64,000 nucleotides of DNA from assembly GCA_964470365.1 (NCBI GenBank), contig CAYYCO010000007.1, forward strand, positions 207 through 64,206, written 5' to 3'. Under the pieces are notes generated by a model, which made no database searches, was not told where the DNA came from, and worked only from the letters and a program-made list of their open reading frames with translations. The DNA is from an uncultured Anaeromyxobacteraceae bacterium (GTDB lineage: Bacteria > Myxococcota_A > UBA9042 > DTJE01). How positions within the stretch are numbered: the first letter of the stretch is position 1; the number at the start of each line of letters is the position of its first letter. Below are positions 3,438-22,218 of this stretch, in pieces. The position numbers and the translations under genes are program-made.

Positions 3438-5216
3438 CTATTCCCTGGTCACGCCGGTGTATCGCGTGGCGGCCGGCGGCGAAACGGTCCCGCGCCGGCG
3501 CAGCAGCTTCACGAAGCCCTCGACGTAACTTGCGTAAGGCAGGGCCGTCCAGCGGTCGGCAGGGATACGGCCGAAGAATTCGTCCATCCGGTCGCCGCCC
3601 TCCTGGAGGTATTTCGTCGTGATCACGCGATAAGTGCCGTCGTCCCTGACCGGCCGCCCGTTGTCCAGGACAAGTTCAAGCGGTCCGCCGTCAACCCGGG
3701 CCACAGTGAATCCCGAAATGACCGGCGCCTTGTTTACGTCGTCGATCAGGAATCGCATCATGTCACGCAGTTCCGCGCCGGAAAGATTCACGGCGACTGG
3801 CGGGTCCGTAAACGGCCAGACCCTGGCGACGTCGCACAGGGTAACCGGCCCGGCAGCCAGGCTGCCCCGGGTCGAACCGCGGTTCATGAACGCCACGACC
3901 GCGTCGACCTTCGCACGGCGTCCGCCGACGTCCGCGCCCAGTTCGCGCAGCATGTCCACGGCCAGCAGGGCCAGAGGCGGTTCGGTCCCGCGGAAAAACA
4001 CGATGTCCGACGTCGCGGTGACGACGACGTCCGAACATTCCCGCGACACCACCGCCTCCGTTTCGCGGCGCAATTCGGTCACGGGCACAAAAGGTTCAAT
4101 CGGGCCGATGTATCCGGGCCACGACGGTTTGCACACGACGGCGCCCGGAAATTCCGGCGGACAGACCGGCACGTGCGGCAGCGCCCTGACCGCGCCCACA
4201 CGACGCCCGGTCATCGCGTCCACATCGATTTCGACCAGCCCGACCGAAATCCCCTGCCCCGGGTTTTCGATCACGGGAATGACGGGGCCGTCGCCGCGCA
4301 GCATGACGTGGTCATGGCCCGACACGATCAGGTCGATGTCGTCGGACGTGAAAGCCGACTGGATTTCGGCCAGTTCGCCGTTCAGCGCGCATGGCGCCGT
4401 CCCCGGTGATACGGCGTCGTCCGCGCGTCCCCGGCAGACGCCGCCAAGGTGCGACAGCACGACGACCACCGTGGCGCCGGCCGCGCGCATCTTCGGAAGC
4501 ACCCGGCGCAGTGCGTCCACAGGCCGGTCGAACACGACGCCGACGCTTCCGGCCCTGCGCGAAACGGTCGGTGTCAGAGGTGTTATGACGCCGGTGAAGC
4601 CGACCTTGATCCCTGCGACGTCGACGATGGCGAATTCCCTGAACGAACGAATCACCGGCGCACCGTTCATCATGCGGGCATTGGCCAGCACGATCGGCTG
4701 TTCAGCGGCCGCGGCGGCCCTTTTCAGCGCCCCGCGGGGATCGACGATTTTGTCATCGGGACCGACGTCCAGGTAATCGAATTCGTGATTACCGATGGTC
4801 CGTGCCGTATAGCCGGCTGCGTTGAAGTATTTCGCGCAGAACATCCCTTCGGACGCGTTGACCGCGTAATCGCCCTGGGAACAGTCGCCCGCGTCGACAA
4901 CAATCGTCCTTTCCGGCGCCTGCGCCCGCAGCGCCGCGATCGTCCCCGCCAGGTAATCGACACCACCAAGCCGGGCCGACGTTGCCGTGTCCGGGTTCAT
5001 CGCAAAATCGGATGCCAGCGTGGATGCCAGCGCGCCATGGATGTCGTTGGTCGAAACCACGCGCAGGGTCACGATCTGCGGGACGGGCGCGGCGGCCGCG
5101 GCCGGGGTTGCGTCTTCCGACGCGGACCACGTTTTGCCGGAACAGGCCGTTGTCCCCGCCGCCAGCGCGGCGGTCAGCACGATGAAGGGAAACAAGTGAC
5201 GGGCATACACGTTCAT
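3438..5216 (-). CDS. Bifunctional metallophosphatase / 5'-nucleotidase lipoprotein (UshA-like)
   Basis: Start set at MNVYARHLFPFIVLTAALAAGTTAC, a signal peptide with a lipobox Cys. Motifs NDIHG, DAGD and GNHEFD are calcineurin-like, and a 5'-nucleotidase C-terminal domain follows. The ATG overlaps the upstream gene's TGA as ATGA at 5213-5216, which suggests translational coupling. Confidence 0.8.
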   Translation of the reverse strand: MNVYARHLFPFIVLTAALAAGTTACSGKTWSASEDATPAAAAAPVPQIVTLRVVSTNDIHGALASTLASDFAMNPDTATSARLGGVDYLAGTIAALRAQAPERTIVVDAGDCSQGDYAVNASEGMFCAKYFNAAGYTARTIGNHEFDYLDVGPDDKIVDPRGALKRAAAAAEQPIVLANARMMNGAPVIRSFREFAIVDVAGIKVGFTGVITPLTPTVSRRAGSVGVVFDRPVDALRRVLPKMRAAGATVVVVLSHLGGVCRGRADDAVSPGTAPCALNGELAEIQSAFTSDDIDLIVSGHDHVMLRGDGPVIPVIENPGQGISVGLVEIDVDAMTGRRVGAVRALPHVPVCPPEFPGAVVCKPSWPGYIGPIEPFVPVTELRRETEAVVSRECSDVVVTATSDIVFFRGTEPPLALLAVDMLRELGADVGGRRAKVDAVVAFMNRGSTRGSLAAGPVTLCDVARVWPFTDPPVAVNLSGAELRDMMRFLIDDVNKAPVISGFTVARVDGGPLELVLDNGRPVRDDGTYRVITTKYLQEGGDRMDEFFGRIPADRWTALPYASYVEGFVKLLRRRGTVSPPAATRYTGVTRE

Positions 5217-7909
5217 TTTCCGCCCTTCCCCTGACGTTTGCCGAGCGCCAGCCGCATGTCGACCCACGCCTTGCGCTGGGCAGCCGAATAGTTGTAGCCG
5301 GCATTGGCGGCAATCACCGGCCCCTTCGAAAACATGGGCTGGCCCGCAACGGCCATATTCCAGTAACGCCGGGCCGTTTCCAGGTCGCCCGCCCTGAACA
5401 TCGACAGGGCCATGCCAACCAGGAAGTCGGGGTCGGACGGGGATTTCGTCAGCGCGGCCGCGAAGTACCCGGCCGCCTCCGTGAAACGTTTCTGGTCGAA
5501 CGCGGCCCAGCCGATGCCGGCTATCGGTTCGGCAGCAGGACCGGACAGCGCGACGCACGACCTGAAGTCGGCCTCGGCGCCGGCGGCGTCACCGTTCATC
5601 AGGCGCGCGATCCCGCGGTTGAACAGCGGTTCGCAGTCGCCGGAACGCAACCCGGCTGCCATGTCGAATTCGGCGGCCGCCCGGACGAAATCCTTCTGCA
5701 GGACGCGCGTCCGGCCCCGGACCATCCTTTCCATGTATCCCCATTCGTCCTCCGGGCCCAGCTTGTCCGCGGCCTCGGCGGCGACCTGCACGCTCTTCAT
5801 GCGGACCGCGACCGACGCGATCACGAGCCAGTCTGCCGAGTCGAGGTTTTTCATGGTTCGCGCGGTGCGGAAAAGCATTGCCGACTGTTTCGGGAAGCCC
5901 TTTTCATCGGCCAGCCGGGCCGCCGACGCCACGACCGCGCCAGACACGCCCCCGGCACGGATCGCGCGGTTCACGACACCGACGCAGATGTCGGGACGCC
6001 CGGTTTCAAGCATCCAGAACACCAGCCTGGGCAGGGCCTTGTTGCGCGCCACCGGCGTTTCAGGCGACATGGCCTTCAGCGCATTGTCCAGCGACAGCCA
6101 GCCCCCCTTCAGATCGCCGGAAACCAGTTCGTGCCGCGCACGCAGCAGCAGCCACGACGCGCCCGCTTCCGGATCGGCGTCGCCCGCGCCGTATTCGTCG
6201 ACCAGAGCCACACAGCGCCCGGCCTCCGGGCTGCCCGGCCAGGTATCCAGTATCGTAACGACGAAATCCGCGACCACGGCAACCGCGTCGGGCGACGACG
6301 CGTACGCTGCCCTGAACAGGGCATCCACCGCTTCAAGCCGGGGCCGCCCGGGCAGCAGGTTTTCAACCAGATCCACCAGTTCCTGCGCGGTCACCCCGGC
6401 CGCGAAAAGGTTCCGCGCGGCCAGCGAGGCGTCCGAAACAGACGCGCCCGGACGATCAAGCGCAACCAGGAAGCGGCCGGCGTACGCGCGTTTCCATTCA
6501 GGTTCGGGCAGGTCGGCACGTGCGATCGCGAAAATGTCGTCCGCCTGGCCGTGAAGCCCGGTTTCCAGCAGCGCGCGCCCCAGTTCGCAGCGGCGCATCC
6601 CCCGGGTGACCGGGAATGCGTCCAGCCGTCCAATCGCCTTTTCCAGGACGGCGACGCGTGTCGCCGGGTCCGCGCGCAGGGGAATGTCCACCGGCGCCGA
6701 AACCATGATTGTCACGATATCGTCCAGCCGACCGCCCGCCGCCAGCGCCGACGCCTGGTCGGGGGCAAGCCCGCGCAGCGCAAGCCCGGCAGCCAGTGTC
6801 GCAAGGCCGCAGTCACGGCCATGACGGCCGGCAACCGCCGAAACCACCCGGTGCAGCGAATCGAACGACGCGCCGGCCACAATCGCCGCCAGCACGGGGT
6901 CGTATTCGCGGAATCCGTTACCGACCGTCGCGTCCAGCAGCAGCGGCGTCGACATTGAACAGGCGCCGTCCGGCCCGCCCAGCGCTGCCACGGCGGAATC
7001 GGCATCGCCGATCGAAAGCGCCGTCAGCGCGACCTTTTTGACGATGGCGTCCAGATCCACGGAATTTTCGATACCGGCGGCGCGAATGCGGCCGATTGAT
7101 TCAACACCGGCCCTGACATAGTCTTCCGGCGTCACGACGATGCGCGCCAGTTCGAGATAATTCGCGACGGCGACGAACCATGCGGCGGGATCAGCCTGCC
7201 CGTCGGCGATAAAGGCGCGCGGTGGGGGGCAGAACCCGAAACCACGCGAAGCCGCATCGGGATCGACCGTGCCGTCAGCCACCGTGATGTCGAACGGGAT
7301 GGAACACGCCAGGCGTCCGAGCCTGTCGCGGACGGCCTGGGCGGCGGTCCCGGCGACATCGACCTTCATGAAGCACTTCGAGTATCCCTCGACCAGCGCA
7401 AGCGCCTGGGGATACATGCCGACCGCGATGCGCGCGTCGATGGCCGGACCGACAAAACCATCCAGTTTCATTATCGAATCGACGTTGTCGATTTTGGCGC
7501 ACAGGTCATTCACGACCGTCAGCATGTCATCGCCGGTCAGCGGGATCGCCGATGGCGGCGGCGGTTCGGGGGCCGGCGCGGGGACAGGTTCAGCGGCTGC
7601 AGGCTCAGCGGCAGGGGCCGGTTCCGCCGCAGGTTCAACCGCAGGCGCGGACGCAGCGACCGGTTCGATGGCAGGCTGGACAGGCGGTTCCGGCACTGGT
7701 TCGGCCGCAGGCTGTGCCGTCGCATCCGCCGCAGGCTCCGCCACCGGCGCCGGCGCCTCTGCCACCGTTGGTTCCGCCACTGGTTCGGCAACAGGTTGCG
7801 TTGCTTCCACCACCACTTCCACGGGCGGTTCAGCCACTGGCTGGTCCTGCGCGACGGCGGCCGATGACAGCAACAACGACGCCAGCGATGCGATCAATGC
7901 GACTTTCAT
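5213..7909 (-). CDS. Secreted protein with a Pro/Ala/Glu-rich repeat linker and a C-terminal TPR-like helical-repeat region
   Basis: 898 aa. Signal peptide MKVALIASLASLLLSSAAVA. Residues ~20-130 are a PAEP/AEPV low-complexity repeat. The remainder is A/L/R-rich helical repeats. TPR assignment is by pattern only and is not verified. Confidence 0.55.
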   Translation of the reverse strand: MKVALIASLASLLLSSAAVAQDQPVAEPPVEVVVEATQPVAEPVAEPTVAEAPAPVAEPAADATAQPAAEPVPEPPVQPAIEPVAASAPAVEPAAEPAPAAEPAAAEPVPAPAPEPPPPSAIPLTGDDMLTVVNDLCAKIDNVDSIMKLDGFVGPAIDARIAVGMYPQALALVEGYSKCFMKVDVAGTAAQAVRDRLGRLACSIPFDITVADGTVDPDAASRGFGFCPPPRAFIADGQADPAAWFVAVANYLELARIVVTPEDYVRAGVESIGRIRAAGIENSVDLDAIVKKVALTALSIGDADSAVAALGGPDGACSMSTPLLLDATVGNGFREYDPVLAAIVAGASFDSLHRVVSAVAGRHGRDCGLATLAAGLALRGLAPDQASALAAGGRLDDIVTIMVSAPVDIPLRADPATRVAVLEKAIGRLDAFPVTRGMRRCELGRALLETGLHGQADDIFAIARADLPEPEWKRAYAGRFLVALDRPGASVSDASLAARNLFAAGVTAQELVDLVENLLPGRPRLEAVDALFRAAYASSPDAVAVVADFVVTILDTWPGSPEAGRCVALVDEYGAGDADPEAGASWLLLRARHELVSGDLKGGWLSLDNALKAMSPETPVARNKALPRLVFWMLETGRPDICVGVVNRAIRAGGVSGAVVASAARLADEKGFPKQSAMLFRTARTMKNLDSADWLVIASVAVRMKSVQVAAEAADKLGPEDEWGYMERMVRGRTRVLQKDFVRAAAEFDMAAGLRSGDCEPLFNRGIARLMNGDAAGAEADFRSCVALSGPAAEPIAGIGWAAFDQKRFTEAAGYFAAALTKSPSDPDFLVGMALSMFRAGDLETARRYWNMAVAGQPMFSKGPVIAANAGYNYSAAQRKAWVDMRLALGKRQGKGGK
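7519..7849 (-). repeat. Low-complexity coding repeat (Pro-Ala-Glu-Pro-Val units) inside CDS 5213-7909
   Basis: Translation reads VAEPVAEPTVAEAPAPVAEPAADATAQPAAEPVPEPPVQPAIEPVA... The DNA is reiterated gcngaacc(g/c) units. Confidence 0.6.
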
Positions 7910-8032
7910 GGAATCCCCCGGGTCGAATTCGACCCCGGCATTCTAGCGCAGGCCCACGCCCCCGGGTAACTATGAAATGCCCGATGACCGCGTGTGATGC
8001 TATACTGCTGGCGGATTTCACCGGGTCGGGCC

Positions 8033-8860
8033 ATGGGGCGTCGCATAATCACGATTATCGTCGTGTTCGCGGCATTCACCGCGCCCTGCCTGCACGCTTT
8101 CGCCGGCACACCCGACGAGGCCTTCGCCGAGGCCGAAAACACCTTCCGTTTCCAGGACTACGAAAACGCCTCGAAAATGCTCGAATCGCTGCTGTACCCG
8201 AAAATCCTGATCAGCGATCCCGCCCGCCAGATCAAGGCTCGCGAATATCTTGCCGCCTGCTGGTTCTGGCTGGGAAACCGTAACCGCATGGAAGAGGAAT
8301 TCACGGCCCTGCTTACGCAGGCGCCGCTGCATGAACTCGATTCGTTCTTCTACCCGGCCGAACTCATTAACGAATTCCAGACGCTCAAACTGCGCCTGAT
8401 CGAACTTCATATCCTGGACCCCGAAAAGGCAAAACTGCAGACCGAACCCGAATGCCTGATGCGGGTCGAGGAAATCACGAAACGTTCAAAAATACCGATG
8501 CTGGTCCCCTTCGGCGTCGGGCAGTTCGTAAACGGCAAAACAACCAAGGGCGCGCTGTTCCTGACAGGCGAACTTGTCTTCCTGGGAATGAACATCGGGG
8601 GTTGGGCGGGCGCCGAATCGCTGCGCGGCGACGACGGCCTTTATTCGCACGACGATGCGGAATCGGCCCGGAAACTGCGCATAGTCCAGTACGTCGGACT
8701 CGGTTCATTCGTCGCGCTTGCAATCTGGGGAATCGTCGACGCGTTCATGGACTTCAAACCTGAAACCAGGTCATACAGATTCGTGCCCTGCCCGACTTCG
8801 TCGCCCGTGTCGCGCGGCGCGCCGGACGGCATCGGCATCTGTTTCCGGATGGGAAAGTAA
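8033..8860 (+). CDS. Hypothetical membrane protein
   Basis: Start moved to MGRRIITIIVVFAAFTAPCLHAFAG (signal/anchor). Two further hydrophobic segments follow. No recognisable catalytic motif. Local GC is slightly lower than the flanks. Confidence 0.45.
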   Translation: MGRRIITIIVVFAAFTAPCLHAFAGTPDEAFAEAENTFRFQDYENASKMLESLLYPKILISDPARQIKAREYLAACWFWLGNRNRMEEEFTALLTQAPLHELDSFFYPAELINEFQTLKLRLIELHILDPEKAKLQTEPECLMRVEEITKRSKIPMLVPFGVGQFVNGKTTKGALFLTGELVFLGMNIGGWAGAESLRGDDGLYSHDDAESARKLRIVQYVGLGSFVALAIWGIVDAFMDFKPETRSYRFVPCPTSSPVSRGAPDGIGICFRMGK

Positions 8861-8872
8861 AGGGGACTCGAA

Positions 8873-10663
8873 GTGGCCAGGATTGTCGTATTCAGTTCGA
8901 ACCAGCCGATTCGCGAATTCCCGCTGTTCCGCCGGTCCACCATGATCGGTCGCGACGAGGCCTGCGACATCTCGCTTCCGGTCCCGGGGCTGAAGGAAGT
9001 CCACGCCGAACTTATCCTGGACGGCGAATCGCACCGCGTCCTTCCGATGGACCCCAAGGCGGAAGTCCTGGTCAACGGCAACAAGACAAAAATGACGGTG
9101 CTCGAACCGTTCGATCTGATCCGCCTCGGGTCCGTAACCATGCTGTACGCTCCTGACGAATTCACGCTGCGTGACGGCGCGGGTCGGGAAAACGAGGCGT
9201 TGCGCGCACTGGAATCGATGTCTGGCCTCGGACGCCGCCTGATGGAAACCACCGACCTCGACCGCTGCCTCGAAATGCTGCTGGACGAAACGATCGCGAT
9301 CAGCCACGCCTCCAAGGGTTTCATCATTTTCAACGAACTGGATTCCCCGGTCGTGAAGGTCGCCCGCAACGTCGGAATGCACGAACTTCCCGACGACGCC
9401 GTGCTGTTTTCCGAAAGCATCGTCCGCAAAGCGCTGGAAAACGGGGAACCGCAACTGGTCAAGGACGCGGCCACCAACCAGGAATTCTCGTCGGCCACCA
9501 GCGTCGTCAACTTGAAACTCGCCTCGGTCATGTGCATCCCGCTGAAGTCGGGCGGCGCCGTCCTGGGGGTGCTGTATCTCGGCACCGAACGCGTCGTGGA
9601 CCTGTTCGACGAGGTGACATTCCGTACGCTGACCGTCCACGCGGCCCTGGCTGCCTCCATCGTCGCCAACGTGATGCTGATCAATTCGCTGCGCCGCGAC
9701 CGCGACGCCCTGCGCGAAGAAGTGAAAGTGTCCAGGTTCGGCGCCCTGATCGGTTCCTGCGACGGAATGCGCGCCGTTTTCGAACGCGTGTCCCGCGTGG
9801 CCCCGACCGACGTCCCCGTCCTGGTCACCGGCGAAACCGGCACCGGCAAGGAACTTATCGCCCGCGAAATTCACGGCCGCAGCCACCGCGCACAGAAACC
9901 GTTTGTCGCGATCAACTGCGGCGCGATCCCGGAAAACCTGATCGAAAGCGAACTGTTCGGCCATGTCAAGGGCGCTTTCACCGGCGCGATCAACACGACC
10001 GCGGGCAGGTTCCAGGCGGCCTCCGGCGGTACCCTTTTCCTGGATGAAATCGGCGACCTGCCGATTCACATGCAGGTCAAGCTGCTGCGGGTCCTGCAGG
10101 ACGGCCTGGTCATGAAGGTCGGCGGCACGCGGCCCGAACAGGTGGACATCCGGGTCCTTGCGGCGACCAACCGCAACCTCGAGGACGAAATCAGGGCCGG
10201 CCGCTTCCGCGAGGACCTTTACTACCGGATCGCCGTCGTGGGCATCAGGCTTCCGGCCCTGCGCGAACGCGGCGAGGACATCGACAGACTGGCCCAGTAT
10301 TTCCTGAAACGGTTCGCGACCGAATTCAAAAGTCCCGTCAGTCGATTCACGGCCGAGGCGGTGGCGGCCATGCACGCATACGGCTGGCCCGGGAACATCC
10401 GCGAACTGGAAAACCGCGTTCGCAAGGCGGTGTTGTTCGCCGACGGCCCTGCCGCGGGGACCGACGCCCTTGAATTCGACGCGGCGCCCGCCACCCCGCT
10501 GGATCTGCCGCTGGCGGCCGCGCGCGACAATTTCGAACAACGCTATGTGCTGGATGCCCTGAAACGCCACGGCGACAACAAGGCGGCCACCGCGCGCGCG
10601 CTGGGTGTCGATGTCAGGACCATATTCCGTTACCTGGAAAGGATGACCGGCGGCGAGGGCTGA
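8873..10663 (+). CDS. FHA-domain sigma-54-dependent transcriptional activator (FHA - GAF-like - AAA+ - Fis-type HTH)
   Basis: The N-terminal region matches an FHA fold ([15 protein letters not shown]). A central GAF-like segment follows. The AAA+ module has Walker A GETGTGKE, the GAFTGA sigma-54 contact loop and an ESELFGH motif. The C-terminus is a Fis-type HTH ([18 protein letters not shown]). Confidence 0.9.
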
Positions 10664-10673
10664 CGGGCAGGGG

Positions 10674-11192
10674 GTGAACGTGTACAGGATTTCCACGGCA
10701 GCCGCACATACGGCCCCGACTGCCGCACCGGCGTTCGTCGCGGCGATCCTCGGCGGCCTGCTGGCGGCCGGATGCGCGATTCCGACCGAAATCCATGAAC
10801 GTTCGGACGCCCTCGATTCACCGACACTCGACCGTTCCCTGGTCACACCGTCGCCGGACCGCACGGTGGAACTGACTTCCACGGTTACGGAATTTTCGGT
10901 CGCTGCCGCGATATCCGCCGACCCGGAAATCCTGGATGAACTCTATTTCCAGTGGTACGTCGGCTATCCGGAATCCGCCGTGCCGACGCCGCCCGCGTTC
11001 GAATCATTCAGGACCATCCTGTTTAACGCCTGCGCGTTCACGGACCTGCTTGGCCCTGTCGGCTCCACGCACACGATTGAACTGGTCATTTCCCGGGACC
11101 CCGCTGAATTCGATTCCGCCAGTGGCAGAGTCCTGCCCGACGAATACATCTATGTCAGCTGGCCCGTTAGACTGATGGTTGCCTGCGAATGA
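10674..11192 (+). CDS. Hypothetical lipoprotein
   Basis: 172 aa with signal peptide and lipobox (LLAAGCA). Begins 10 nt after the activator gene. Its stop overlaps the next start by 4 nt. Confidence 0.5.
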   Translation: MNVYRISTAAAHTAPTAAPAFVAAILGGLLAAGCAIPTEIHERSDALDSPTLDRSLVTPSPDRTVELTSTVTEFSVAAAISADPEILDELYFQWYVGYPESAVPTPPAFESFRTILFNACAFTDLLGPVGSTHTIELVISRDPAEFDSASGRVLPDEYIYVSWPVRLMVACE

Positions 11193-12919
11193 AACCGTTC
11201 CGTGGATGGTTCGCCGCCGCCTTCGCCATCGCCCTGGGGGGAACGGCTTCGTGTGATTCCGAATCCGGAACGATCGTCGACAATTTCCCTGGTTTAACGC
11301 CATGCGCGACCGTGTCCGACTGCCGGCCGGGCCTGGCTTGTTCGGAACGGTACGGGGTCTGCTTCCGGCCGATGCCCGCCGGCGCGCCGCTGGTTTTCAC
11401 GATCACGCCGGCGGCCGGGTCCGGCATGGTTCAGGATCAGTTCGACGGTGTCGAATGTCCACAGCCGGGCCGAATCGACATCACCATGACGCCCGCGACG
11501 GTTATCAAGGGATACATACTGCCGCCGTATGGTGACGACGGCGGCGACTACCGTGGCGCCGGGCGACTGTTCGCCGAGGCTCCCGGACGCATCCCCGGCC
11601 TCTCGTTCCGGCATGACGCGCGGACGACGGCCGGCTCCATCGGATCGAAATGGGAAATACCGCTTGCCCCCGATCGCGATTACATGCTGACTTTCGTGGC
11701 GGATAACCCGGATGTCCCGCCCGCATCGTGGTCAGTCGGCGCCGGCATATCCGGCGGCATGGATCTGCGCGTGTCAACGCCGGTTTTCAAATTGTCCGGT
11801 GTTGTGCGGCGCCTCGTAGGCAATGAAAAGATTCCCCTGCCCGGCGCACTTGTCGAGGCTTTCGCGGCCGGTCGCCGCTCCACGTCATGCGTGACCGACA
11901 ACAACGGTGTTTTCACGCTGTCAGTCCCGGAAACCGATGGTTCGATATCTATCGTGACCAGCCCGGGTGATTCGGGCCTCGTATTCCCGCGCGGCACCCT
12001 TTCGTTCGACGGAATCGACGATTTGCGGAACAGGCTGCCCAGAACCGACTTCATGGCAATCGATGTCCAGCCTGCCGACGCGATTGCAACGATATCTTTC
12101 CAGGTGCTCAGCGTGTCTACCGGCGTAAGCCGCATTCCTATCGCGGGCGCGTCGATATTCATCGACCAGCGTTCCGGGGACGGGGTATTCCGGTACCGAT
12201 CGGTTATCGATGACAACGGATTCTTCGCGCTCGATCTGCCGGCCGGCATCTATCAGGTGGCCGTAATGCCACCCGGTGGAGGCCCGGACGCACCGCTGAA
12301 ATCCGCACAATTTTCATGGACCGGCGCCGAGGTGCAGTTCGATGGCCAGACCGATCGGATCTTCGGCATGGAACTTCCGCGACGGCCGATGGTCACCGGA
12401 CGCATCGTCGATGCCGCGACCGCCGCGCCGGTGCAGGGGGCCAGGGTGATCCTTGCGACCGATTCGTCGCAGCTTGCGGACTGGCATTCATCTTTCGCGA
12501 CCGACCTGCTGTTCGAAGCCCTCACCGACGAAAACGGCGAATTTTCGGTCAGGTTGGAACCTGCCATATACGCCATGCAGGTCAGGCCACCTGCCGGCTC
12601 GGGACTTGCAACCGCGTCCTGGCCGTCCGTGGCCATAACCGGCACCGAAAACCTGCGCGCCGAACTTGGCGGGGTCTGCCTGCTGGGTGGAAGGTTCGTT
12701 TCGACGGATGGCAAGGCCGCGTCGGGCGCGACCGTGACCTTCTTCCAGCCGACGACGGCCGACACCTGGCAGGCATGGCCGATGCGCGACGCATACTGGG
12801 CAAACGCCCTGCGCGAGGTCGGCTCGACACGTGCCGGTTCTGACGGTTCATGGGAGATCCTGCTGCCATGCCCCGACGCCCCCTCCAGCGCAACCGGCGG
12901 CGTTTTCATGACCTGGTAG
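11189..12919 (+). CDS. Lipoprotein with three carboxypeptidase-regulatory-like beta-sandwich repeats
   Basis: 576 aa. Lipobox ALGGTASC. Three repeats fit the CarboxypepD_reg pattern (G-A-x-V / TD-x-NG-x-F / P-x-G-x-Y-x-x-x-V): TDNNGVFTLSV, DDNGFFALDLPAGIYQVAV and TDENGEFSVRLEPAIYAMQV. Confidence 0.55.
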   Translation: MKPFRGWFAAAFAIALGGTASCDSESGTIVDNFPGLTPCATVSDCRPGLACSERYGVCFRPMPAGAPLVFTITPAAGSGMVQDQFDGVECPQPGRIDITMTPATVIKGYILPPYGDDGGDYRGAGRLFAEAPGRIPGLSFRHDARTTAGSIGSKWEIPLAPDRDYMLTFVADNPDVPPASWSVGAGISGGMDLRVSTPVFKLSGVVRRLVGNEKIPLPGALVEAFAAGRRSTSCVTDNNGVFTLSVPETDGSISIVTSPGDSGLVFPRGTLSFDGIDDLRNRLPRTDFMAIDVQPADAIATISFQVLSVSTGVSRIPIAGASIFIDQRSGDGVFRYRSVIDDNGFFALDLPAGIYQVAVMPPGGGPDAPLKSAQFSWTGAEVQFDGQTDRIFGMELPRRPMVTGRIVDAATAAPVQGARVILATDSSQLADWHSSFATDLLFEALTDENGEFSVRLEPAIYAMQVRPPAGSGLATASWPSVAITGTENLRAELGGVCLLGGRFVSTDGKAASGATVTFFQPTTADTWQAWPMRDAYWANALREVGSTRAGSDGSWEILLPCPDAPSSATGGVFMTW

Positions 12920-12977
12920 CACTTTCCCCGACACCCCCATTTCTGGTAAAGTCCTTCTGGCTTTGGAGTCTGCACCG

Positions 12978-14699
12978 ATGGAAAGGATTCCCGTTTCGAT
13001 CGCGATACTGCTTTCAATGTTCTTCGCAGCCCCGGCACTGGGGGCGACCGATCCGGAATACCCCGGCGACTCGTCGCATGTGCTGTGGTTCCTGGTCATG
13101 TCGGATGAACACATCACCGCCCGTGACAGCGACGGCCCCGAAAGGCTGACCTGGCTTGTGAACGACGGCATGACGTATGTTGAACCCGATATCGTGTTCA
13201 ACTGCGGCGACCTGACCGACGGCAGCAACGGCGAACCGCTGGTTTCGCTATATCCCGGCAAACAGGATGACGAATGGCAGGCCTACCGCCAGATTCTGGA
13301 CGACGCGGGAATTTCGGTTGAACAGTACATCGATCTTCCGGGCAACCACGACCAGTACAGCGACAGGGGCAACACCAGGTACCTGCAATACTCGCTGGCG
13401 GGCAGCACTTTTTCGCGCACGCAGCATTCCATCGTCATCGACAAACCGTGGGGCAGCTACCACTTCCTGGGCATCGACACCACCGGCAACGACGGCGCGG
13501 GTTGGCCGCTGGACAACGCTGGACTGGACGTCGACGAACTGCTGTACATCCTTCGGTCGCTGGAAGATAACGACGGGGCGCGGATGCAGGTAATGTTCGG
13601 GCACCACCCGATCGTCAGGCCGGACCTGGGTTTCAAGTTGAACGAGGGCAGCGACGAAATCCAGGAATTCATGGGCGACCACCGGGTCAGGGCATATTTT
13701 TACGGACACACCCACGAATACCGTGATCTTTACTGGCCTGACAATGACATGATGCCCGTGACCCTTCATGAAAACGTCGATTCGTTCGGCAAGGCCGAAA
13801 CGAACAACGTCATCCTCGCGTCGATCGACAACGACAACCTCCAGATCAGGCAGGTTTCCGTCGGCGAATTCCCCTGGGTCATCGTGACCGCTCCCGCCGA
13901 CATCAACCAGGGCGGCGGCAACCCGTGGGCCGTCGACGTCCCCGCCGGCATGGAATTCGCACCGATCCGCGCTCTCGGCTTCACATCCGATCCCTTCCTG
14001 TCCTGCCAGTATAGCCTGGACGGCGGGCCCTGGGTGACGATGGAACAGCTCGGCGACCACCGCTACGAGGGATACATGGACACGCGGGGCATGACCGCGG
14101 GTAATCACACCGTCGAGGTGCGCGCGCTGCCGGGACCGGCGAACGGCCACAAAATCACGTTCCGGGTCACGGCTTACGCCTGCGGCAACGGCATGGACGA
14201 GGACTCGGACGGTCTGACCGATTTCCCGGACGATCCTGGCTGTGATTCGGCCGCTGATAACGATGAATACAACGATATCGTCGTGCCTGAACCGGAACCC
14301 GAACCGGTGGCCGACGTGATCGTCGCCGACATGTATGTGCCGGACGCGTCCGTGCCGGACGCATTCGATCCCGAAGTTCCCGCCGCAGATGAACATACGG
14401 GCGAAACCGGCGAAACGGTCATTTTCGACGTTCCCGGCGACGCTGTTCCGGTCGACACAGCACTGATCGATGACCCCGGCGCCGTCGACGACCGTGGACA
14501 GGCATTTGACCATGGAATCGCTTCCGACGCGGCTTCCGACGCGGCTTCCGACGATGCCGCGGCGGATGACGACGTCGCCCGTGACGAACATTCCGGCGGC
14601 GGCTGCTCGGCCGGCGGCGGGACCGCCGGAAACGCATTCGGCGCGCTCGTGCTGCTGGCCCTGGCTGGCATGGCGATGCGCAGGAGGTCGTTCAATTGA
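12978..14699 (+). CDS. Secreted calcineurin-like metallophosphoesterase with a MYXO-CTERM-type sorting tail
   Basis: Start set at ATG 12978 (MERIPVSIAILLSMFFAAPALGA). The track ORF begins at an in-frame TTG 15 nt upstream. MPE motifs GDLTDGSNG, LPGNHD and GHTHEY are present. An acidic low-complexity region precedes the tail GGGCSAGGGTAGNAFGALVLLALAGMAMRRRSFN. Confidence 0.7.
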   Translation: MERIPVSIAILLSMFFAAPALGATDPEYPGDSSHVLWFLVMSDEHITARDSDGPERLTWLVNDGMTYVEPDIVFNCGDLTDGSNGEPLVSLYPGKQDDEWQAYRQILDDAGISVEQYIDLPGNHDQYSDRGNTRYLQYSLAGSTFSRTQHSIVIDKPWGSYHFLGIDTTGNDGAGWPLDNAGLDVDELLYILRSLEDNDGARMQVMFGHHPIVRPDLGFKLNEGSDEIQEFMGDHRVRAYFYGHTHEYRDLYWPDNDMMPVTLHENVDSFGKAETNNVILASIDNDNLQIRQVSVGEFPWVIVTAPADINQGGGNPWAVDVPAGMEFAPIRALGFTSDPFLSCQYSLDGGPWVTMEQLGDHRYEGYMDTRGMTAGNHTVEVRALPGPANGHKITFRVTAYACGNGMDEDSDGLTDFPDDPGCDSAADNDEYNDIVVPEPEPEPVADVIVADMYVPDASVPDAFDPEVPAADEHTGETGETVIFDVPGDAVPVDTALIDDPGAVDDRGQAFDHGIASDAASDAASDDAAADDDVARDEHSGGGCSAGGGTAGNAFGALVLLALAGMAMRRRSFN

Positions 14700-15232
14700 A
14701 GACTTCGACAATCATTGCAATCGCGGCGGGCGGCCTGGTGGTCGCCGCGGTCACCGTTACGCTCGTCGTTTCGGCCACGAACCGTGGCAACTCCGTGAAA
14801 CCGGAAAAGGCCGCGACTGCCCAGACGGCACCTGCACCGGTCCGCGGCAACGGTCTCAGGAATTCGCCCAGGATCCCGCGTCCGCCCAAGGTCGCCGCCC
14901 CGCAGGGAAAGGATCTGCGTGAACCACAACCCATAAAGTCGGCCGATTATGTGAAAAACGCGATCAGGTTCGGCGTTCAGAAGGCGCCCGATACGAAGCT
15001 GCCGATTGCCAGGATGGCGCAGATGCCGGTCAGCGGTCCTTCGGCCGCGGACAGGATTGTCGGCCGCGCTCAGACGCTTCGCGCACAGGGCAAGAATGCC
15101 GAGGCGACCAAACTGCTGAAAAATTCGCTGCTGACCGAAACGAACCCTTATTACCGCAAACTTCTTGAAAACGCCATCAGGGAAGACCAGCAGGCCAATC
15201 GCAGGCCGCCTGATGGTGCACAATTCAAGTAA
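14696..15232 (+). CDS. Hypothetical membrane-anchored protein
   Basis: 178 aa with an N-terminal TM anchor (IIAIAAGGLVVAAVTVTLVV). Its start overlaps the previous stop by 4 nt. No recognisable domain. Confidence 0.45.
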   Translation: MKTSTIIAIAAGGLVVAAVTVTLVVSATNRGNSVKPEKAATAQTAPAPVRGNGLRNSPRIPRPPKVAAPQGKDLREPQPIKSADYVKNAIRFGVQKAPDTKLPIARMAQMPVSGPSAADRIVGRAQTLRAQGKNAEATKLLKNSLLTETNPYYRKLLENAIREDQQANRRPPDGAQFK

Positions 15233-15251
15233 TCCATTCGCAGGGGGCGCC

Positions 15252-17093
15252 ATGTCCACCGAAATGCCCGTTCATTCAAAGGCTTTCAAGATCCGCAGGT
15301 TCCTGAACTGGTTCCCCATGGGCCTGACGTACGCGTTCCTGTACATGGGCAGGTACAACCTGACCGTGGCCAAGAATTCGCTGGGCGACATGATGACCAA
15401 GGAGGACTTCGGCCTGATTTTCGGGGCCGGAACGCTGGTGTACGCATTCGCTTTCCTGCTGAACGGGCCGCTGACTGACAAGGTCGGCGGGAAAAAGGCC
15501 ATCCTTGCAGCGTCGCTCGGTTCGGGCATCATGAACCTGCTGATGGGCCTGTTCGTGTGGAACATGATCGTCAACCCGGGTTCGATGGCCCTGAACATGG
15601 TCACGACCATGTCGGTCATGTACGCGATCAACATGTATTTCCAGTCGTTCGCGGCGGTCGCCATCGTCAAGGTGAATTCGTCGTGGTTCCACGTACGCGA
15701 ACGCGGCGGATTTTCGGGCATTTTCGGCACGATGATCTCATCCGGCATCTTCTTCGCGTTCACCGTCAATTCCTGGATCCTGAACCTGACGTCCGCCTGG
15801 GGCCCGACCGGGTCGAAGGCCACCTGGTGGGTCTTCCTGATGCCGTCGTTCATCCTTTTCACGATGTTCGTCGTCGAAATATTCCTGCTGCGCGACACGC
15901 CGAAAAAGGCGGGGCTTGAAGACTTCAATACCGGCGACGCGACGTCCGATGTCGGCTCCGACGTCGGCCTGGCCCAGATCGTGAAAAAGGTACTGACCAA
16001 CCCGATCATCCTGACCGTCGCCTTCATCGAACTGTGCACCGGCGTCATCCGCAACGGCGTCATGCACTGGTTCCCGATTTATGCGAAGGAAGTCCTGGCC
16101 CTGCCGTCGCACCACATGCTGCGGGACGGGTCGTGGGCCGGACACCTTTGGTGGGTCGTTGCTGCCATGTTCGCGCTGGCCGCGATCCTGTTCATCCTTT
16201 CGACGAAGTTTACCGGCAAACGCAAGGCGACCCTGATCGTGTCCGGCGCCCTGATTGCGCTGGCGCCGTTCATGCAGGGCGGCTGGGGCGGCCTGCTGTT
16301 CGTGGCGGGCGTCATCGGCGGCAACGTGGCCGGCTGGGTCAGCGACCTGTTCTTCCAGTCCAGGCGCGCCCCCGCCGCGGCCGGGCTTTACGGGCTGCTG
16401 GCCCTGTGCCTGGTCGGCATGTACTTCAGCCTGAGCGGCACAAAATCGGAAGTTGGCTGGACGAAATCCGACGAATACGGGCTGAAAAAGGGTGACGTGG
16501 TCGTTTCCGTCAACGGGAAGGATGGCCTTCGGGACTGGACCGACGTATCGCGCGCGATTGCCTGCATCCCGTCCGCCTGTCAGGGCGACAAGGTCGTCTG
16601 GGACATGAAGGCCTGCATGTGCACGGCCAAACCGAAAGAACCCGCGGGCGCCGGCCTGCTCACATCGGACGGCACGATCCACCTGGTCGTCGATCGCGGC
16701 GGACGCGGTACCGCCGTCGAACTGAAGGACCCGCTGATGACGGCCCGCGCCGGCGATTCGCGCAGGCTGGACGCCGGGCCGGTCCTGACCCTGACGCCGT
16801 TCTTCCTGGGCCTCATCCTGTTCCTGGTTTCCCTGGGCGTCATCGGCACGCACGGCCTGCTTTCCGGCACCGCCACGATGGACTTCGGCGGCACGAAGGG
16901 CGCCGCCACCGCGGTCGGCATGATCGACGGCTTCGTTTATCTGGGCACCGCGCTGCAGAGCGTGTCCCTGGGCTTCCTGACCACCCGGTCATGGTCATAC
17001 TGGCCGCTGTTCATGCTGCCATTCAGTTTCCTGGGCTTCTTCCTGCTGACCCGCATCTGGAACGCCAAACCGAAGGCCGGCGGCGGGCACTAG
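15252..17093 (+). CDS. OPA-family MFS transporter (GlpT/UhpC-like) with an inserted PDZ-like, Cys-rich soluble domain
   Basis: Start set at MSTEMPVHSK. The N-terminus follows the GlpT/UhpC pattern (FLYMGRYNLTVAKNSLGDMMTKEDFGLIFGAGTLVYAFAFLLNGPLTDKVGGKK). A ~115-aa insertion sits before the last two TM helices. It carries a PDZ-like GLKKGDVVVSVNGKDGLRDW segment and five Cys (CIPSAC, CMC). Confidence 0.75.
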   Translation: MSTEMPVHSKAFKIRRFLNWFPMGLTYAFLYMGRYNLTVAKNSLGDMMTKEDFGLIFGAGTLVYAFAFLLNGPLTDKVGGKKAILAASLGSGIMNLLMGLFVWNMIVNPGSMALNMVTTMSVMYAINMYFQSFAAVAIVKVNSSWFHVRERGGFSGIFGTMISSGIFFAFTVNSWILNLTSAWGPTGSKATWWVFLMPSFILFTMFVVEIFLLRDTPKKAGLEDFNTGDATSDVGSDVGLAQIVKKVLTNPIILTVAFIELCTGVIRNGVMHWFPIYAKEVLALPSHHMLRDGSWAGHLWWVVAAMFALAAILFILSTKFTGKRKATLIVSGALIALAPFMQGGWGGLLFVAGVIGGNVAGWVSDLFFQSRRAPAAAGLYGLLALCLVGMYFSLSGTKSEVGWTKSDEYGLKKGDVVVSVNGKDGLRDWTDVSRAIACIPSACQGDKVVWDMKACMCTAKPKEPAGAGLLTSDGTIHLVVDRGGRGTAVELKDPLMTARAGDSRRLDAGPVLTLTPFFLGLILFLVSLGVIGTHGLLSGTATMDFGGTKGAATAVGMIDGFVYLGTALQSVSLGFLTTRSWSYWPLFMLPFSFLGFFLLTRIWNAKPKAGGGH

Positions 17094-17111
17094 CGGGCGT
17101 GCCGGTTTTTT
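17083..17111 (+). terminator. Putative intrinsic terminator after the MFS gene
   Basis: GGCAC-N8-GTGCC stem followed by GG and TTTTTT, immediately after stop 17093. The stem partly overlaps the stop codon. Confidence 0.45.
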
Positions 17112-17251
17112 GATAATCCACGGATATCTAACGTCAATTGCGCTGGTAGACGAATTACCGCGCCCGGGACTTCGCCGGCCAGGTGACATGTTCCACTTCA
17201 ACGTTGCAATCCGGATACCGGGGCAAAGGACAAGCCACCCTGCCAGGTCTC

Positions 17252-18121
17252 TCACCAGTAGACGTGGTAAATCGGCTGGACTTCGGAACAGGGACGGCAC
17301 ATCGATGACGGAAGGCCGGTGTTGCGTCGGTTGCGGCCGGCGACGGACTTGAAAACCGGGCCGGACTTTTCTTCGTCGCACAGCAGGCAGTCGTTCAGGG
17401 TACCGTCCGCGTTGTGATAGGACGCGTCGAGCAGTTCGAAACAGGTCGAAAAACACTCGGCCTGCGTATGCATGGTGTTGTAATACCAGATCTGCGCGCA
17501 CGGAAGGTCGAAGCCCAGGTCGCGCAGGCACTGTATGTTGCCGTCGGGATTCCCGAAATTGTCCAGGCCGCAGGCGCGCACCGGGTCGGTCAGGTCCGGG
17601 TGCCGCATGTACACCACAAGGTTGGTCAGCGTCGAACAGACCCCGCAGCCGTCCCAGTGCGTGATGTATGCCCCGGCATCAATGGCATCGGCTTCGCTGG
17701 CGAAGGTTTCCAGCCGGTATCCGTTTTCGACGGAATCATCCAGAAACAGGCCGCACACCGCGCCCGGCACCGGCTGGTGCAGTTCCGGTTCGGCATAAGG
17801 GTCTTCGGTGACTTCGGCGGGCGGGTTCACCGGAACCATCGCCAGCAGGCGTTCAATGTCGGCTTCCGTGTATGCGGGCGGCCGGAAGCACTTCCCGCCG
17901 CAGTTGAATTCCGGGCGGCACTGTTCGGCTGTCAGGCCGGTCTTATCGTTCGGGACGCCGAACAGGAACGTGCATTCGTCGTCAGATACCGGCTCGCCGC
18001 AGTAATCGACGGCCGGTTCACCGCCGCATCCGGCCAGCGCAACTGAAACGACCACGGCACCAAGCGTGCGGGCCGCGTTGAAAAAGCTTGAAATCACCGG
18101 AACCTCCCTGTTTGTGAGCAT
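17252..18121 (-). CDS. Cys-rich hypothetical lipoprotein
   Basis: Start set at MLTNREVPVISSFFNAARTLGAVVVSVALAGCGG (lipobox). The mature chain has about 20 Cys. No known motif. Confidence 0.5.
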   Translation of the reverse strand: MLTNREVPVISSFFNAARTLGAVVVSVALAGCGGEPAVDYCGEPVSDDECTFLFGVPNDKTGLTAEQCRPEFNCGGKCFRPPAYTEADIERLLAMVPVNPPAEVTEDPYAEPELHQPVPGAVCGLFLDDSVENGYRLETFASEADAIDAGAYITHWDGCGVCSTLTNLVVYMRHPDLTDPVRACGLDNFGNPDGNIQCLRDLGFDLPCAQIWYYNTMHTQAECFSTCFELLDASYHNADGTLNDCLLCDEEKSGPVFKSVAGRNRRNTGLPSSMCRPCSEVQPIYHVYW

Positions 18122-21134: not shown

Positions 21135-22217
21135 ATGGATATTGCCGAACGCAGGCGCAGGAACGTGTTCAAGGGCGGATTGCTGGCGGCGCTGCTGATC
21201 ACGACCGCCTTCGTTGCCTGGAACCGCCTTTCGGATGGCGACCGGACGAAGAAACCCGTGACTAAGGAAGGGCTTGTATACGCCGGAATACCGGCCCGCG
21301 TCGAATTCGTGCCGACGCCGTCCGCTTCAGGCCCAGAACAGGCCTGGCGCATCCTGGTTGACACCGGTAACGTCTTCAACGCGTTCGATCCCGCGTCCGA
21401 ACTGGGCCGTCTGAACGCCACTCCCGGCGCCGACGCGGTCGATGTTTCGAGGGATCTCGGCGACGCAATCGGGGGCGCGATCGGAATCAGCCAGGCTACC
21501 CAGGGCGCATTCGACATAACGGTAAGGCCGCTGAAAAAACTCTGGAAAAAGGCTGTGGAAACCGGCATCGCCCCGACCGATTACGAATTGTCGGCGGCAC
21601 TGGAAAAGATCGGCTGGGGTTACCTGAGCCTGATTCGCGCCCCTTCAAATTCATGGAAGGTGTCGCGCGGGCGGCCCGGCATGGAACTGGACCTGGGCGG
21701 CATCGTCAAGGGATGGTCGGTTGACCGGGCCGTCCAGTGGCTGACGGACAGGCGCGTGAAATCGGCGCTCGTCCAGGTCGGCGGCGAAATCGGGCTGGTG
21801 GGCCAGTCGGACACGAACCGCCCCTGGCGCATCGGGATCAGGCATCCGCTCGACGGCAACAGGAACTGGACCGTCCTTTCAATCACGGGCCGCGCCGCCG
21901 TTTCGACCAGCGGCAACTACGAACAACCCATTAAAATCGGCGGCATTGATTACTACCACATCTTCGACCCGGCGATAGGGCGGCCGATTTCAACTGACAT
22001 CCTCGGCGTCACGGTTGTGGTGACTGCCGGACAGGACATGAATGCCAGGGCGGACGGGCTTGCCACCGCCTTCGCCGTCATGGGTGTGGACAAGGCGCTG
22101 GAAACGGCTGCGACCATGAAGGGCGTGGACGTTCTGTTCATCGTGCGCGACAAGGATGGCGGAAAGCCGGTCGAACGCACGACGCCGGGATTCAAACGGT
22201 TCAGGAAGGGGTCATGA
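21135..22217 (+). CDS. apbE: FAD:protein FMN transferase (ApbE family)
   Basis: Start at MDIAERRR. N-terminal TM anchor. ApbE-like core (GGIVKGWSVDRA, SGNYE, GIDYYHIFDP). Confidence 0.8.
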   Translation: MDIAERRRRNVFKGGLLAALLITTAFVAWNRLSDGDRTKKPVTKEGLVYAGIPARVEFVPTPSASGPEQAWRILVDTGNVFNAFDPASELGRLNATPGADAVDVSRDLGDAIGGAIGISQATQGAFDITVRPLKKLWKKAVETGIAPTDYELSAALEKIGWGYLSLIRAPSNSWKVSRGRPGMELDLGGIVKGWSVDRAVQWLTDRRVKSALVQVGGEIGLVGQSDTNRPWRIGIRHPLDGNRNWTVLSITGRAAVSTSGNYEQPIKIGGIDYYHIFDPAIGRPISTDILGVTVVVTAGQDMNARADGLATAFAVMGVDKALETAATMKGVDVLFIVRDKDGGKPVERTTPGFKRFRKGS

Positions 22218-22218
22218 A

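Follow-up and report, generated by a model that had tools for sequence, protein, structure and literature searches.

A sigma-54 activator gene and a predicted surface phosphodiesterase gene in two putative adjacent transcription units of uncultured Myxococcota

Extracytoplasmic phosphodiesterases pair with transporters, as GlpQ does with GlpT and GpdQ with Ugp. On the regulatory side, sigma-54 enhancer-binding proteins that carry an FHA domain are known from Myxococcus xanthus (Jelsbak, Givskov & Kaiser 2005, as cited in PMC12288465). Genes for a regulator of this general kind and for a predicted exported phosphodiesterase lie close together in a stretch of 64,000 nucleotides (nt), here called the window, from an uncultured Anaeromyxobacteraceae bacterium (assembly GCA_964470365.1, contig CAYYCO010000007.1, positions 207 to 64,206 of the forward strand). 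Seven co-oriented plus-strand genes, read from the sequence at about 8000 to 17100, encode there a membrane protein (orf0), the sigma-54 activator, two putative lipoproteins (orf2 and orf3), a calcineurin-like metallophosphoesterase (PE), a membrane-anchored protein (orf5) and a transporter of the major facilitator superfamily (MFS). As yet uncharacterised, the cluster is confined to uncultured Myxococcota. An original prediction from the same DNA had joined these genes, from the activator onwards, into one operon whose activator could control the PE. We consider it reasonably probable instead that positions 7998-17113 hold two adjacent, co-oriented and separable transcription units, that the ancestral target of the activator is orf2-orf3, and that the second unit is independently promoted.

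The activator (8873-10663, plus strand; 596 amino acids) shares with the M. xanthus proteins an N-terminal FHA-fold domain, an AAA+ domain with the GAFTGA motif, a Fis-type helix-turn-helix (HTH) domain and a Myxococcota host. It differs from them in carrying an extra GAF domain, in having Lys or Arg in place of a key FHA serine, in an FHA arginine that is not conserved across orthologues, in lacking, in the window lineage, a nearby sigma-54 promoter and in being found always with an upstream membrane TPR-like protein. NorR and NifA also combine GAF, AAA+ and HTH domains, and their models are its best matches in NCBIfam (about 366-368 bits). Unlike those proteins, however, the activator scores below the equivalog cutoffs (367.9 vs 476 for NorR, NF003451, and 365.7 vs 528.85 for NifA, TIGR01817), has the additional FHA-like domain, and has no nor or nif genes nearby. 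Its Pfam matches are FHA (PF00498; 32.9 bits, cutoff 20.7; also PF16697, 34.6 vs 33.2), GAF_2 (43.5, cutoff 28.6), Sigma54_activat (PF00158; 239.9, cutoff 20.2), AAA_lid_14 and HTH_8 (22.8, cutoff 22). The GAFTGA motif, the Walker A and B motifs, the arginine fingers and the REDLYYR motif are conserved in all eight orthologues compared (8/8), and the recognition helix of the HTH domain is intact and conserved.

The FHA-fold domain (8873-9170; activator residues 1-100) departs from the pattern expected of a phosphothreonine reader. When it is aligned to the FHA domain of MDC1, a Lys stands at the phosphothreonine-contacting Ser, and this canonical position (S-x-x-H) is occupied by Lys or Arg in 8/8 orthologues; the arginine of the GR motif is lost in two of the eight (Gly in L013, Ser in L005). 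Because the contacting Ser is replaced in all of them and the Arg in two, canonical phosphothreonine reading appears doubtful, and the domain looks like a degenerate one that would be used for something other than phosphothreonine reading. The phospho-signal input through the FHA domain that was originally proposed therefore finds no support in these residues. A further idea, in which the GAF domain would sense a cyclic nucleotide that an Rv0805-like enzyme produces or breaks down, was dropped since the enzyme in question, the PE, is exported.

Immediately upstream of the activator lies orf0 (8033-8860, plus strand; 275 amino acids, ATG start at 8033), which ends 12 nt before it. Translation and hydropathy give orf0 a signal peptide, then a helical, TPR-like region in the periplasm and finally a membrane hairpin at the C-terminus, and its orthologues, 82-54% identical, are always directly 5' of the activator gene. 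We deduce that orf0 is most plausibly an envelope-side partner or sensor of the activator.

Gene order and candidate promoters

Behind the activator, a 10-nt gap leads to the GTG start of orf2 at 10674 (10674-11192; 172 amino acids), which overlaps orf3 (11189-12919; 576 amino acids) by the 4 nt ATGA at 11189-11192. A gap of 58 nt (12920-12977) precedes the PE gene (12978-14699; 573 amino acids). This in turn shares a TTGA overlap at 14696-14699 with orf5 (14696-15232; 178 amino acids), and 19 nt separate the orf5 stop at 15232 from the ATG of the MFS gene at 15252 (15252-17093; 613 amino acids), after which there is a terminator-like hairpin; all of these genes are on the plus strand. The genes, domains and junction coordinates given in the original prediction are all present as described, both in the sequence and in Pfam, and its list of five genes and the MFS gene stands, save that orf0, 12 nt 5' of the activator, had been overlooked. 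Its description of a tightly coupled operon suits the short junctions but not the 58-nt orf3-PE gap, which holds a promoter-like element.

The proteins of the window were compared by tblastn with 90 fetched loci, labelled L001, L002 and so on. The relatives all come from metagenomes or metagenome-assembled genomes (MAGs) labelled Myxococcota, Myxococcales, Anaeromyxobacteraceae or 'Deltaproteobacteria', and their proteins, where named at all, are called 'hypothetical protein'. The gene order is kept in about 7 lineages of Myxococcota MAGs, and its recurrence in independent MAGs is more than chance. The full order orf0-activator-orf2-orf3-PE-(orf5)-MFS is found, besides the window, in L001/2, L003/4, L009/L010/L088, L011/L090, L012 and L013. 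Other loci hold parts of it: orf0-activator-orf2-orf3 together with the PE and without orf5 or MFS in L005, orf0-activator-orf2-orf3 alone in L091/L092 (orf2 identity 31%), and the PE with an orf5-like protein and/or the MFS, with no activator block, in L006, L007, L008, L017 and L018. Two genes on the opposite (minus) strand, both for small lipoproteins, stand between orf3 and the PE in L005, L012 and L013. Since the blocks occur apart, and are split by opposite-strand genes in some loci, the neighbourhood resolves, on comparison, into two separable blocks, unit A (orf0, activator, orf2 and orf3) and unit B (PE, orf5 and MFS), and their link reads as a long-lived but facultative synteny. The expectation that the gene order would be conserved in Myxococcota relatives is thus borne out, as is the idea of a conserved set of envelope or cell-surface genes, the products being extracytoplasmic or membrane proteins.

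Identity to the window declines at increasing distance through 91, 81, 75 and 60-63% for the activator, the most conserved gene of the cluster, compared with 82, 74, 71 and 54-60% for orf0, 69, 65, 58 and 36-42% for the PE, and 53, 43, 37 and 29% for orf3. In the comparison with L001 the activator is 91% identical and the neighbouring genes 53-82%. A metagenome scan with the orf2 alignment returned just three close loci, and a search for homologues of the FHA-GAF part gave six proteins, mostly fragments, with no gain of further deep-branching loci.

The intervening minus-strand genes (L005 8781-9597, L012 8348-9822 and L013 5436-6263) are absent from the window. One of each pair encodes a Cys-rich protein of about 131-136 amino acids and the other a coiled coil of about 135-164 amino acids; a gene for the coiled-coil lipoprotein is also found 5' of the PE in L017, which is without the activator block.

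Each unit is preceded by a promoter-like element. An extended -10 element, TGCTATACT (TGn followed by TATACT), lies at 7998-8006 on the plus strand, 27 nt upstream of the orf0 ATG, and an alignment of the divergent region finds TGCTATACT conserved upstream of orf0 in the window, L001, L004, L009, L012 and L005. Its counterpart in L011 is TGTTATACT, and L091 has a related yet different element, TGGTAAGAT. A second extended -10 element, TGGTAAAGT, is situated at 12944-12952 on the plus strand, inside the 58-nt orf3-PE gap. Of 85 loci, 16 carry TGNTANNNT no more than 80 nt ahead of the PE start; nearly all 16 belong to the Myxococcota clade, with PE identity of at least 36%. Among random 80-mers the rate is 2.5%. 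We infer from this conservation that units A and B each have a conserved extended -10 promoter of the sigma-70 type. Unit A would then be transcribed from the promoter upstream of orf0, and unit B from its own promoter in the 58-nt gap, ending at the intrinsic-terminator-like hairpin (GGCAC...GTGCC) with a T-run at 17086-17113 on the plus strand.

Sigma-54 elements between the activator and orf2

Targets of the activator were sought with a weighted -24/-12 scan (maximum score 20) over 1.41 Mb on both strands, or 2.8 Mb of strand sequence. The 64-kb window has no match of at least 18.5/20, and neither the cluster nor the intergenic DNA of the window has a sigma-54 promoter for the activator. 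This agrees with the earlier remark that no convincing promoter of this kind could be found inside the cluster, and the caveat attached to it, that the target may lie elsewhere, holds for the window lineage, where no -24/-12 element is nearby. Three matches scoring 18.0 in the window (at 12595 in orf3 and at 24766 and 41842 in long open reading frames, ORFs) were set aside as all intragenic. The sequence TGGCTTTGGAGTCTGCA in the 58-nt gap was likewise rejected as a sigma-54 site, its GG-GC spacing being 11 nt rather than 10 and the ATG too close. Seven close relatives, scanned for sigma-54 sites from orf0 to orf3 with a relaxed threshold, showed no conserved site, and a sigma-54 element between the activator and orf2 is absent from the close relatives L001, L004, L009, L011, L088 and L090.

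The deeper-branching loci are different. Their activator and orf2 genes are separated by an intergenic region of about 100-190 nt, compared with 10 nt in the window, and a sigma-54-type element lies between the two genes in four loci: TGGCACGCCCATTGCT in L012 (5918-5946, score 20/20), TGGCACAGGCGTTGCA in L013 (2902-2917, 19.5), TGGTACGTCGGTTGCA in L005 (6398-6426, 18.5) and TGGCATGCACCTTGCT in L091 (7002-7017). In all of the DNA scanned there are only five matches of at least 19.5, and two of these five are at the activator-orf2 junction. The relatives' motifs fall in the orf2 reading frame, gene callers starting orf2 at or before them. The amino acids encoded there vary, and the bases of the consensus are preserved by means of rare codons (GCA at a frequency of 1.6-9%, GTA at 6% and TTG at 2-13%), the joint expectation of these codons being about 4e-11 were the region coding only. 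Such a pattern, with variable amino acids and consensus nucleotides retained by rare codons, points to selection acting at the DNA level. In two loci the predicted +1 falls on an in-frame start codon, an ATG in L012 and a TTG in L005, so that sigma-54-driven transcription of orf2-orf3 in the deep-branching relatives may yield leaderless mRNAs.

The strongest competing explanation denies that these motifs are promoters. Instead, a conserved peptide at the N-terminus of orf2 would have produced them as a by-product, or they would be some other DNA or RNA element, and the constant neighbourhood of the activator would be synteny without a regulatory link. Consistent with this, the TG of TGG falls, in the orf2 frame, inside an ATG, GTG, TTG or CTG codon, orf2 is called as starting at or before the motif, several distant members of the orf2 family begin with x-A-R/Q-x-L-L/Q peptides, and L091 is without a good in-frame start downstream. 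Yet the -24 GG / -12 GC spacing is exact and the flanks are near consensus in 4/4 independent loci, each time right after the gene for an enhancer-binding protein. Together with the rarity of equally strong matches, the varying amino acids spelled with consensus-preserving rare codons, and the start codons at the predicted +1 of L012 and L005, this leads us to regard a non-promoter origin as rather unlikely.

On the reading that the elements are promoters, the ancestral local target of the activator was probably the lipoprotein pair orf2-orf3 and not the PE, because the relatives' sigma-54 element sits directly 5' of orf2-orf3. The ancestral state would have been a sigma-70-driven orf0-activator pair followed by a sigma-54-driven orf2-orf3 pair. 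In the window lineage the sigma-54 element would have been lost and the spacer would have shrunk to 10 nt, so that orf2-orf3 would now be co-transcribed with their former activator. As the activator is strongly conserved, in a manner indicating purifying selection, and has no local element, it would act on sigma-54 promoters elsewhere. The locus would then be an example of regulatory rewiring in which the targets lost their sigma-54 promoter and joined the sigma-70 transcript of the activator, the activator itself staying strongly conserved. It would also illustrate how comparison can split an apparent single operon into a unit of activator with target and a neighbour with a promoter of its own.

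About 65 nt upstream of the sigma-54 element of L005, at about 6320-6345, there is a perfect 10-3-10 palindrome, GTTGCCACGG-ATA-CCGTGGCAAC, which is a candidate enhancer site for the activator. A search of the window for it, allowing up to 3 mismatches, gave no match, and no enhancer motif common to the four deep relatives could be derived by eye.

Predicted products of the two units

The PE matches Pfam Metallophos with 45.4 bits against a cutoff of 21.5 and has a signal peptide at its N-terminus. All five metal-ligand motifs (DxH, GD, GNHD/E, H and GHxH) are present and invariant in 22 sequences, with D43, H45, D78, N123, H124, H209/H210, H244 and H246 as the invariant residues. An AlphaFold2 (AF2) model consists of the catalytic domain, a confident Ig-like beta-sandwich at residues 300-400 and a disordered acidic linker. 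Foldseek places Rv0805, SMPDL3B/3A, Lmo2642 and purple acid phosphatases as the nearest solved folds, at about 15% identity, with E values of 1e-13 to 1e-9 for the Rv0805/CpdA-type and SMPDL3A/B matches; a sequence search of the PDB gave no match with the single PE sequence and weak purple-acid-phosphatase matches only with a profile. Like the class III phosphodiesterases Rv0805 and CpdA and like SMPDL3A/B, the PE has the binuclear fold with all five motifs, and its predicted location is comparable, Rv0805 being envelope-associated and SMPDL3B a lipid-anchored surface enzyme. Unlike Rv0805 and SMPDL3A/B, the PE adds an Ig-like domain, putatively of the TMEM62 type, as well as an acidic double-disulfide motif, an extended acidic linker and a C-terminal tail like those of MYXO-CTERM proteins.

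A catalytic domain followed by an Ig-like beta-sandwich is also the arrangement of eukaryotic TMEM62 and of bacterial proteins that combine Metallophos with Ig_TMM62. The Pfam family Ig_TMM62 (PF24384) is found in the distant PE homologues P0029, P0045 and P0041; the PE of the window itself gives no match to PF24384, its modelled beta-sandwich being at 300-400. The comparison offers no mechanism because no biochemical function is assigned to TMEM62 in the literature searched. From fold and motifs, the PE is likely to be a Sec-exported, TMEM62-like surface metallophosphodiesterase of the binuclear kind.

Between the Ig-like domain and the acidic linker, at PE residues about 398-424 (14169-14234), lies an acidic double-disulfide motif, C-x-N-G-x-D-D-D-x-D-G-x-x-D...C, with the form C-G-N-G-x-D-E-D-x-D-G-L-T-D-x-P-D-D-P-G-C in the window. 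It is found in 20 of 22 members of the PE family, scores below threshold against NF033662, and is probably a Ca-binding module.

The C-terminus of the PE has GGGC with an invariant C543, a transmembrane (TM) helix at 551-572 and a final RRR. MYXO-CTERM signals are defined by an invariant Cys motif, a TM helix and an Arg-rich C-terminal tail (PMC11980579). The PE resembles the proteins sorted by the MYXO-CTERM/myxosortase (MrtX) system described there in having all three parts and a Myxococcota genome. It differs from the proteins of the model in its TIGR03901 score of 19.5, just under the cutoff of 20; TIGR03901 matches 7 of 22 PE family members at E <0.01. The tail fits a predicted MYXO-CTERM-like surface-sorting signal, and the earlier description of a calcineurin-like metallophosphoesterase with a tail of this type is upheld to that extent.

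The orf5 product has one N-terminal TM helix as an anchor, a Pro-rich linker and a C-terminal TPR-like helical hairpin. Genes for proteins built in this way overlap the end of the PE gene by 4 nt in L001, L003/L004, L006 and L007, and such a gene lies near the PE in L008, L011, L012 and L013. Because the 4-nt overlap is conserved, the arrangement suggests that PE and orf5 are made as a stoichiometric pair.

The transporter matches MFS_1 with 78 bits against 33.4, together with a weak PDZ_6 match. The models of the OPA family are its best NCBIfam matches and are all below threshold (TIGR00881 86.8 vs 407.75; GlpT, TIGR00712, 68.3 vs 632.55). Of the earlier label 'OPA-family MFS', the MFS part is thus solid, and the OPA part comes from these sub-threshold matches. 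Its orthologues (48-64% identity) are found 3' of the PE in L001-4, L009, L011-L013, L088 and L090; an MFS gene also comes after the PE in L017/L018 (partial tblastn matches) and is divergently oriented in L006 (42%). A position beside the gene of a secreted phosphodiesterase, together with best matches to OPA models, likens it to the OPA antiporters GlpT, UhpC and PgtP, from which it differs in being about 160 amino acids longer, in having a PDZ-like Cys-rich insert and probably in having extra TM helices.

The insert amounts to about 120 amino acids (residues 395-513, about 16434-16790), is PDZ-like and contains four Cys residues (CIPSAC...CMC); it is conserved in the orthologues of L011, L012, L013 and L017. 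The loop GWVSDLFFQSRRAP resembles MFS motif A, and hydropathy together with this motif-A-like loop suggests about 14 TM helices and a periplasmic location of the insert. An MFS transporter with an inserted PDZ-like domain is an unusual architecture.

We propose that the PE is exported via Sec, tethered at the cell surface by its MYXO-CTERM-type tail, and works with its co-made membrane-anchored TPR-like partner orf5. It would cleave extracellular phosphodiesters, and the OPA-like MFS would import the organophosphate product. Scavenging of extracellular phosphodiesters combined with import is the most plausible role of unit B. A bolder proposal, which we hold to be improbable, makes PE, orf5 and MFS a physically coupled hydrolyse-and-import device, with a lipid-anchored PE at the surface joined to the MFS through orf5 and the importer's periplasmic PDZ-like Cys-rich domain, and, separately, has orf2-orf3 leaderless in the deep relatives. 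If true, the coupled device would provide the first functional handle on the TMEM62 family.

Of the two lipoproteins of unit A, orf2 has the lipobox LAAG-C34, with C34 conserved in every one of 11 sequences and in most of a set of 27, and a second invariant pair, C120 and C171. Its AF2 model has a predicted local distance difference test score of about 90 for residues 47-172, a beta-sandwich. It is, from this model, predicted to be a small lipoprotein with a disulfide-bonded Ig-like beta-sandwich; Foldseek against the PDB gave generic Ig or cadherin-like matches only (E >=0.02). With 32 clusters among 1.84 billion representatives, orf2 appears to define a new, narrow lipoprotein family. The orf3 product has a Cys-rich N-terminus and three stretches of CarboxypepD_reg beta-sandwich in Pfam, and is a probable lipoprotein (GTAS-C, with an atypical -3 residue). 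The overlap of the two genes is 4 nt long in the window, L001, L004 and L005 and 16 nt long in L091, and its conservation suggests a stoichiometric pair. No Pfam or NCBIfam family was matched by orf0, orf2 or orf5.

Known biology is not overturned by any of this, the components being mostly of known kinds together with the one new small lipoprotein family. The locus does offer testable proteins from the poorly known Myxococcota: a narrow family of lipoproteins, an enhancer-binding protein whose FHA domain is degenerate, a putative bacterial surface phosphodiesterase of TMEM62-like type that has a dedicated partner, and an MFS transporter with a PDZ-like insert.

Competing readings and genomic surroundings

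Several observations weigh against two separable units with the roles proposed above. The adjacency of A and B has held in about 7 lineages, down to 36-42% PE identity, which hints at some functional link between them. A generic sigma-70 scan, which needs a -35 box, returned 0 sites, and neither extended -10 promoter has a recognisable -35 box, both having been recognised through their conservation. The terminator scan of the window found no terminator between orf3 and the PE, so that in the window lineage unit B may be co-expressed by transcription running on from unit A. The sigma-54 element is drawn from four independent deep-branching loci; its motifs fall inside the orf2 ORFs as called, in their reading frame, the predicted transcription start of L091 is followed by no good in-frame start codon, and the motifs could be something other than promoters. 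For the import step, the OPA similarity of the transporter is far under the family cutoff, and a PDB sequence search with the MFS found no chain, GlpT included, at E <=0.01.

The lasting adjacency speaks for a reading in which both units build one envelope machine, where orf2/orf3 would act as a surface scaffold or receptor that presents substrate to the PE or positions it, and the PDZ-like domain of the MFS together with orf5 would dock the complex to the inner membrane. The products are indeed all extracytoplasmic or membrane proteins, and the 4-nt overlaps kept at orf2/orf3 and at PE/orf5 point to products made in stoichiometric pairs. Against such a machine, unit A occurs without unit B in L091 and unit B without unit A in L006 and L017, and the two units have separate putative promoters; we consider it unlikely.

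The single tight operon of the original prediction, in which the FHA/sigma-54 activator takes a phospho-signal from a Ser/Thr kinase and controls the PE and its partners, can appeal to co-oriented genes with short gaps or overlaps, to the missing terminator between orf3 and PE, to activator and PE blocks that adjoin in about 7 lineages and to an FHA match above the Pfam threshold, but is very unlikely, given that the cluster and the intergenic DNA of the window lack a sigma-54 promoter, that the relatives' sigma-54 elements are directly 5' of orf2-orf3 instead of the PE, that the PE has its own conserved extended -10 element, that the phosphothreonine-binding residues of the FHA domain are replaced as described, and that the blocks are split by two opposite-strand genes in L005, L012 and L013 and are independent elsewhere (PE without the activator block in L006, L017, L007 and L008; the block without the PE in L091).

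On the preferred reading of two separable units, the surroundings are consistent with a scavenging theme. A divergent secreted TPR protein of 898 amino acids (5213-7909, minus strand), with Pfam TPR matches, is a conserved upstream neighbour in all full-order loci; its own -10 element, TAGAAT at 7945-7940 on the minus strand, is conserved. The second gene of this divergent operon encodes a UshA-like 5'-nucleotidase (3438-5558, minus strand; Pfam Metallophos and 5_nucleotid_C), which reads as co-transcribed with the TPR protein and is syntenic in L001, L004, L009-L011, L088 and L090. Its true start is probably internal to ORF 3438-5558, because that ORF overlaps the TPR gene. Downstream of the MFS come queA, tgt, apbE, a gene for a Ca-dependent PI-PLC-like protein (22156-23280, plus strand) and one for a 1290-amino-acid NAGidase-Metallophos-EEP fusion (23309-27181, minus strand). 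Exported phosphoesterases are thus abundant in the surrounding 25 kb (3438-5558 on the minus strand, 22156-23280 on the plus strand and 23309-27181 on the minus strand), which fits that theme. A scan of 7000-18000 at Rfam gathering thresholds found no RNA family.

Two small elements lie in the divergent region 5' of orf0. At 7920-7935 the leader of the TPR gene contains GGGTCGAATTCGACCC, a perfect 16-bp palindrome that lies between the two divergent -10 elements and is not conserved in L001 or L004. The sequence TATGAAATG, at 7971-7979, is not found in the deeper loci; it is kept in the window, L001, L004 and L009, about 25 nt ahead of the extended -10 element of orf0, and could be a candidate site for a regulator.

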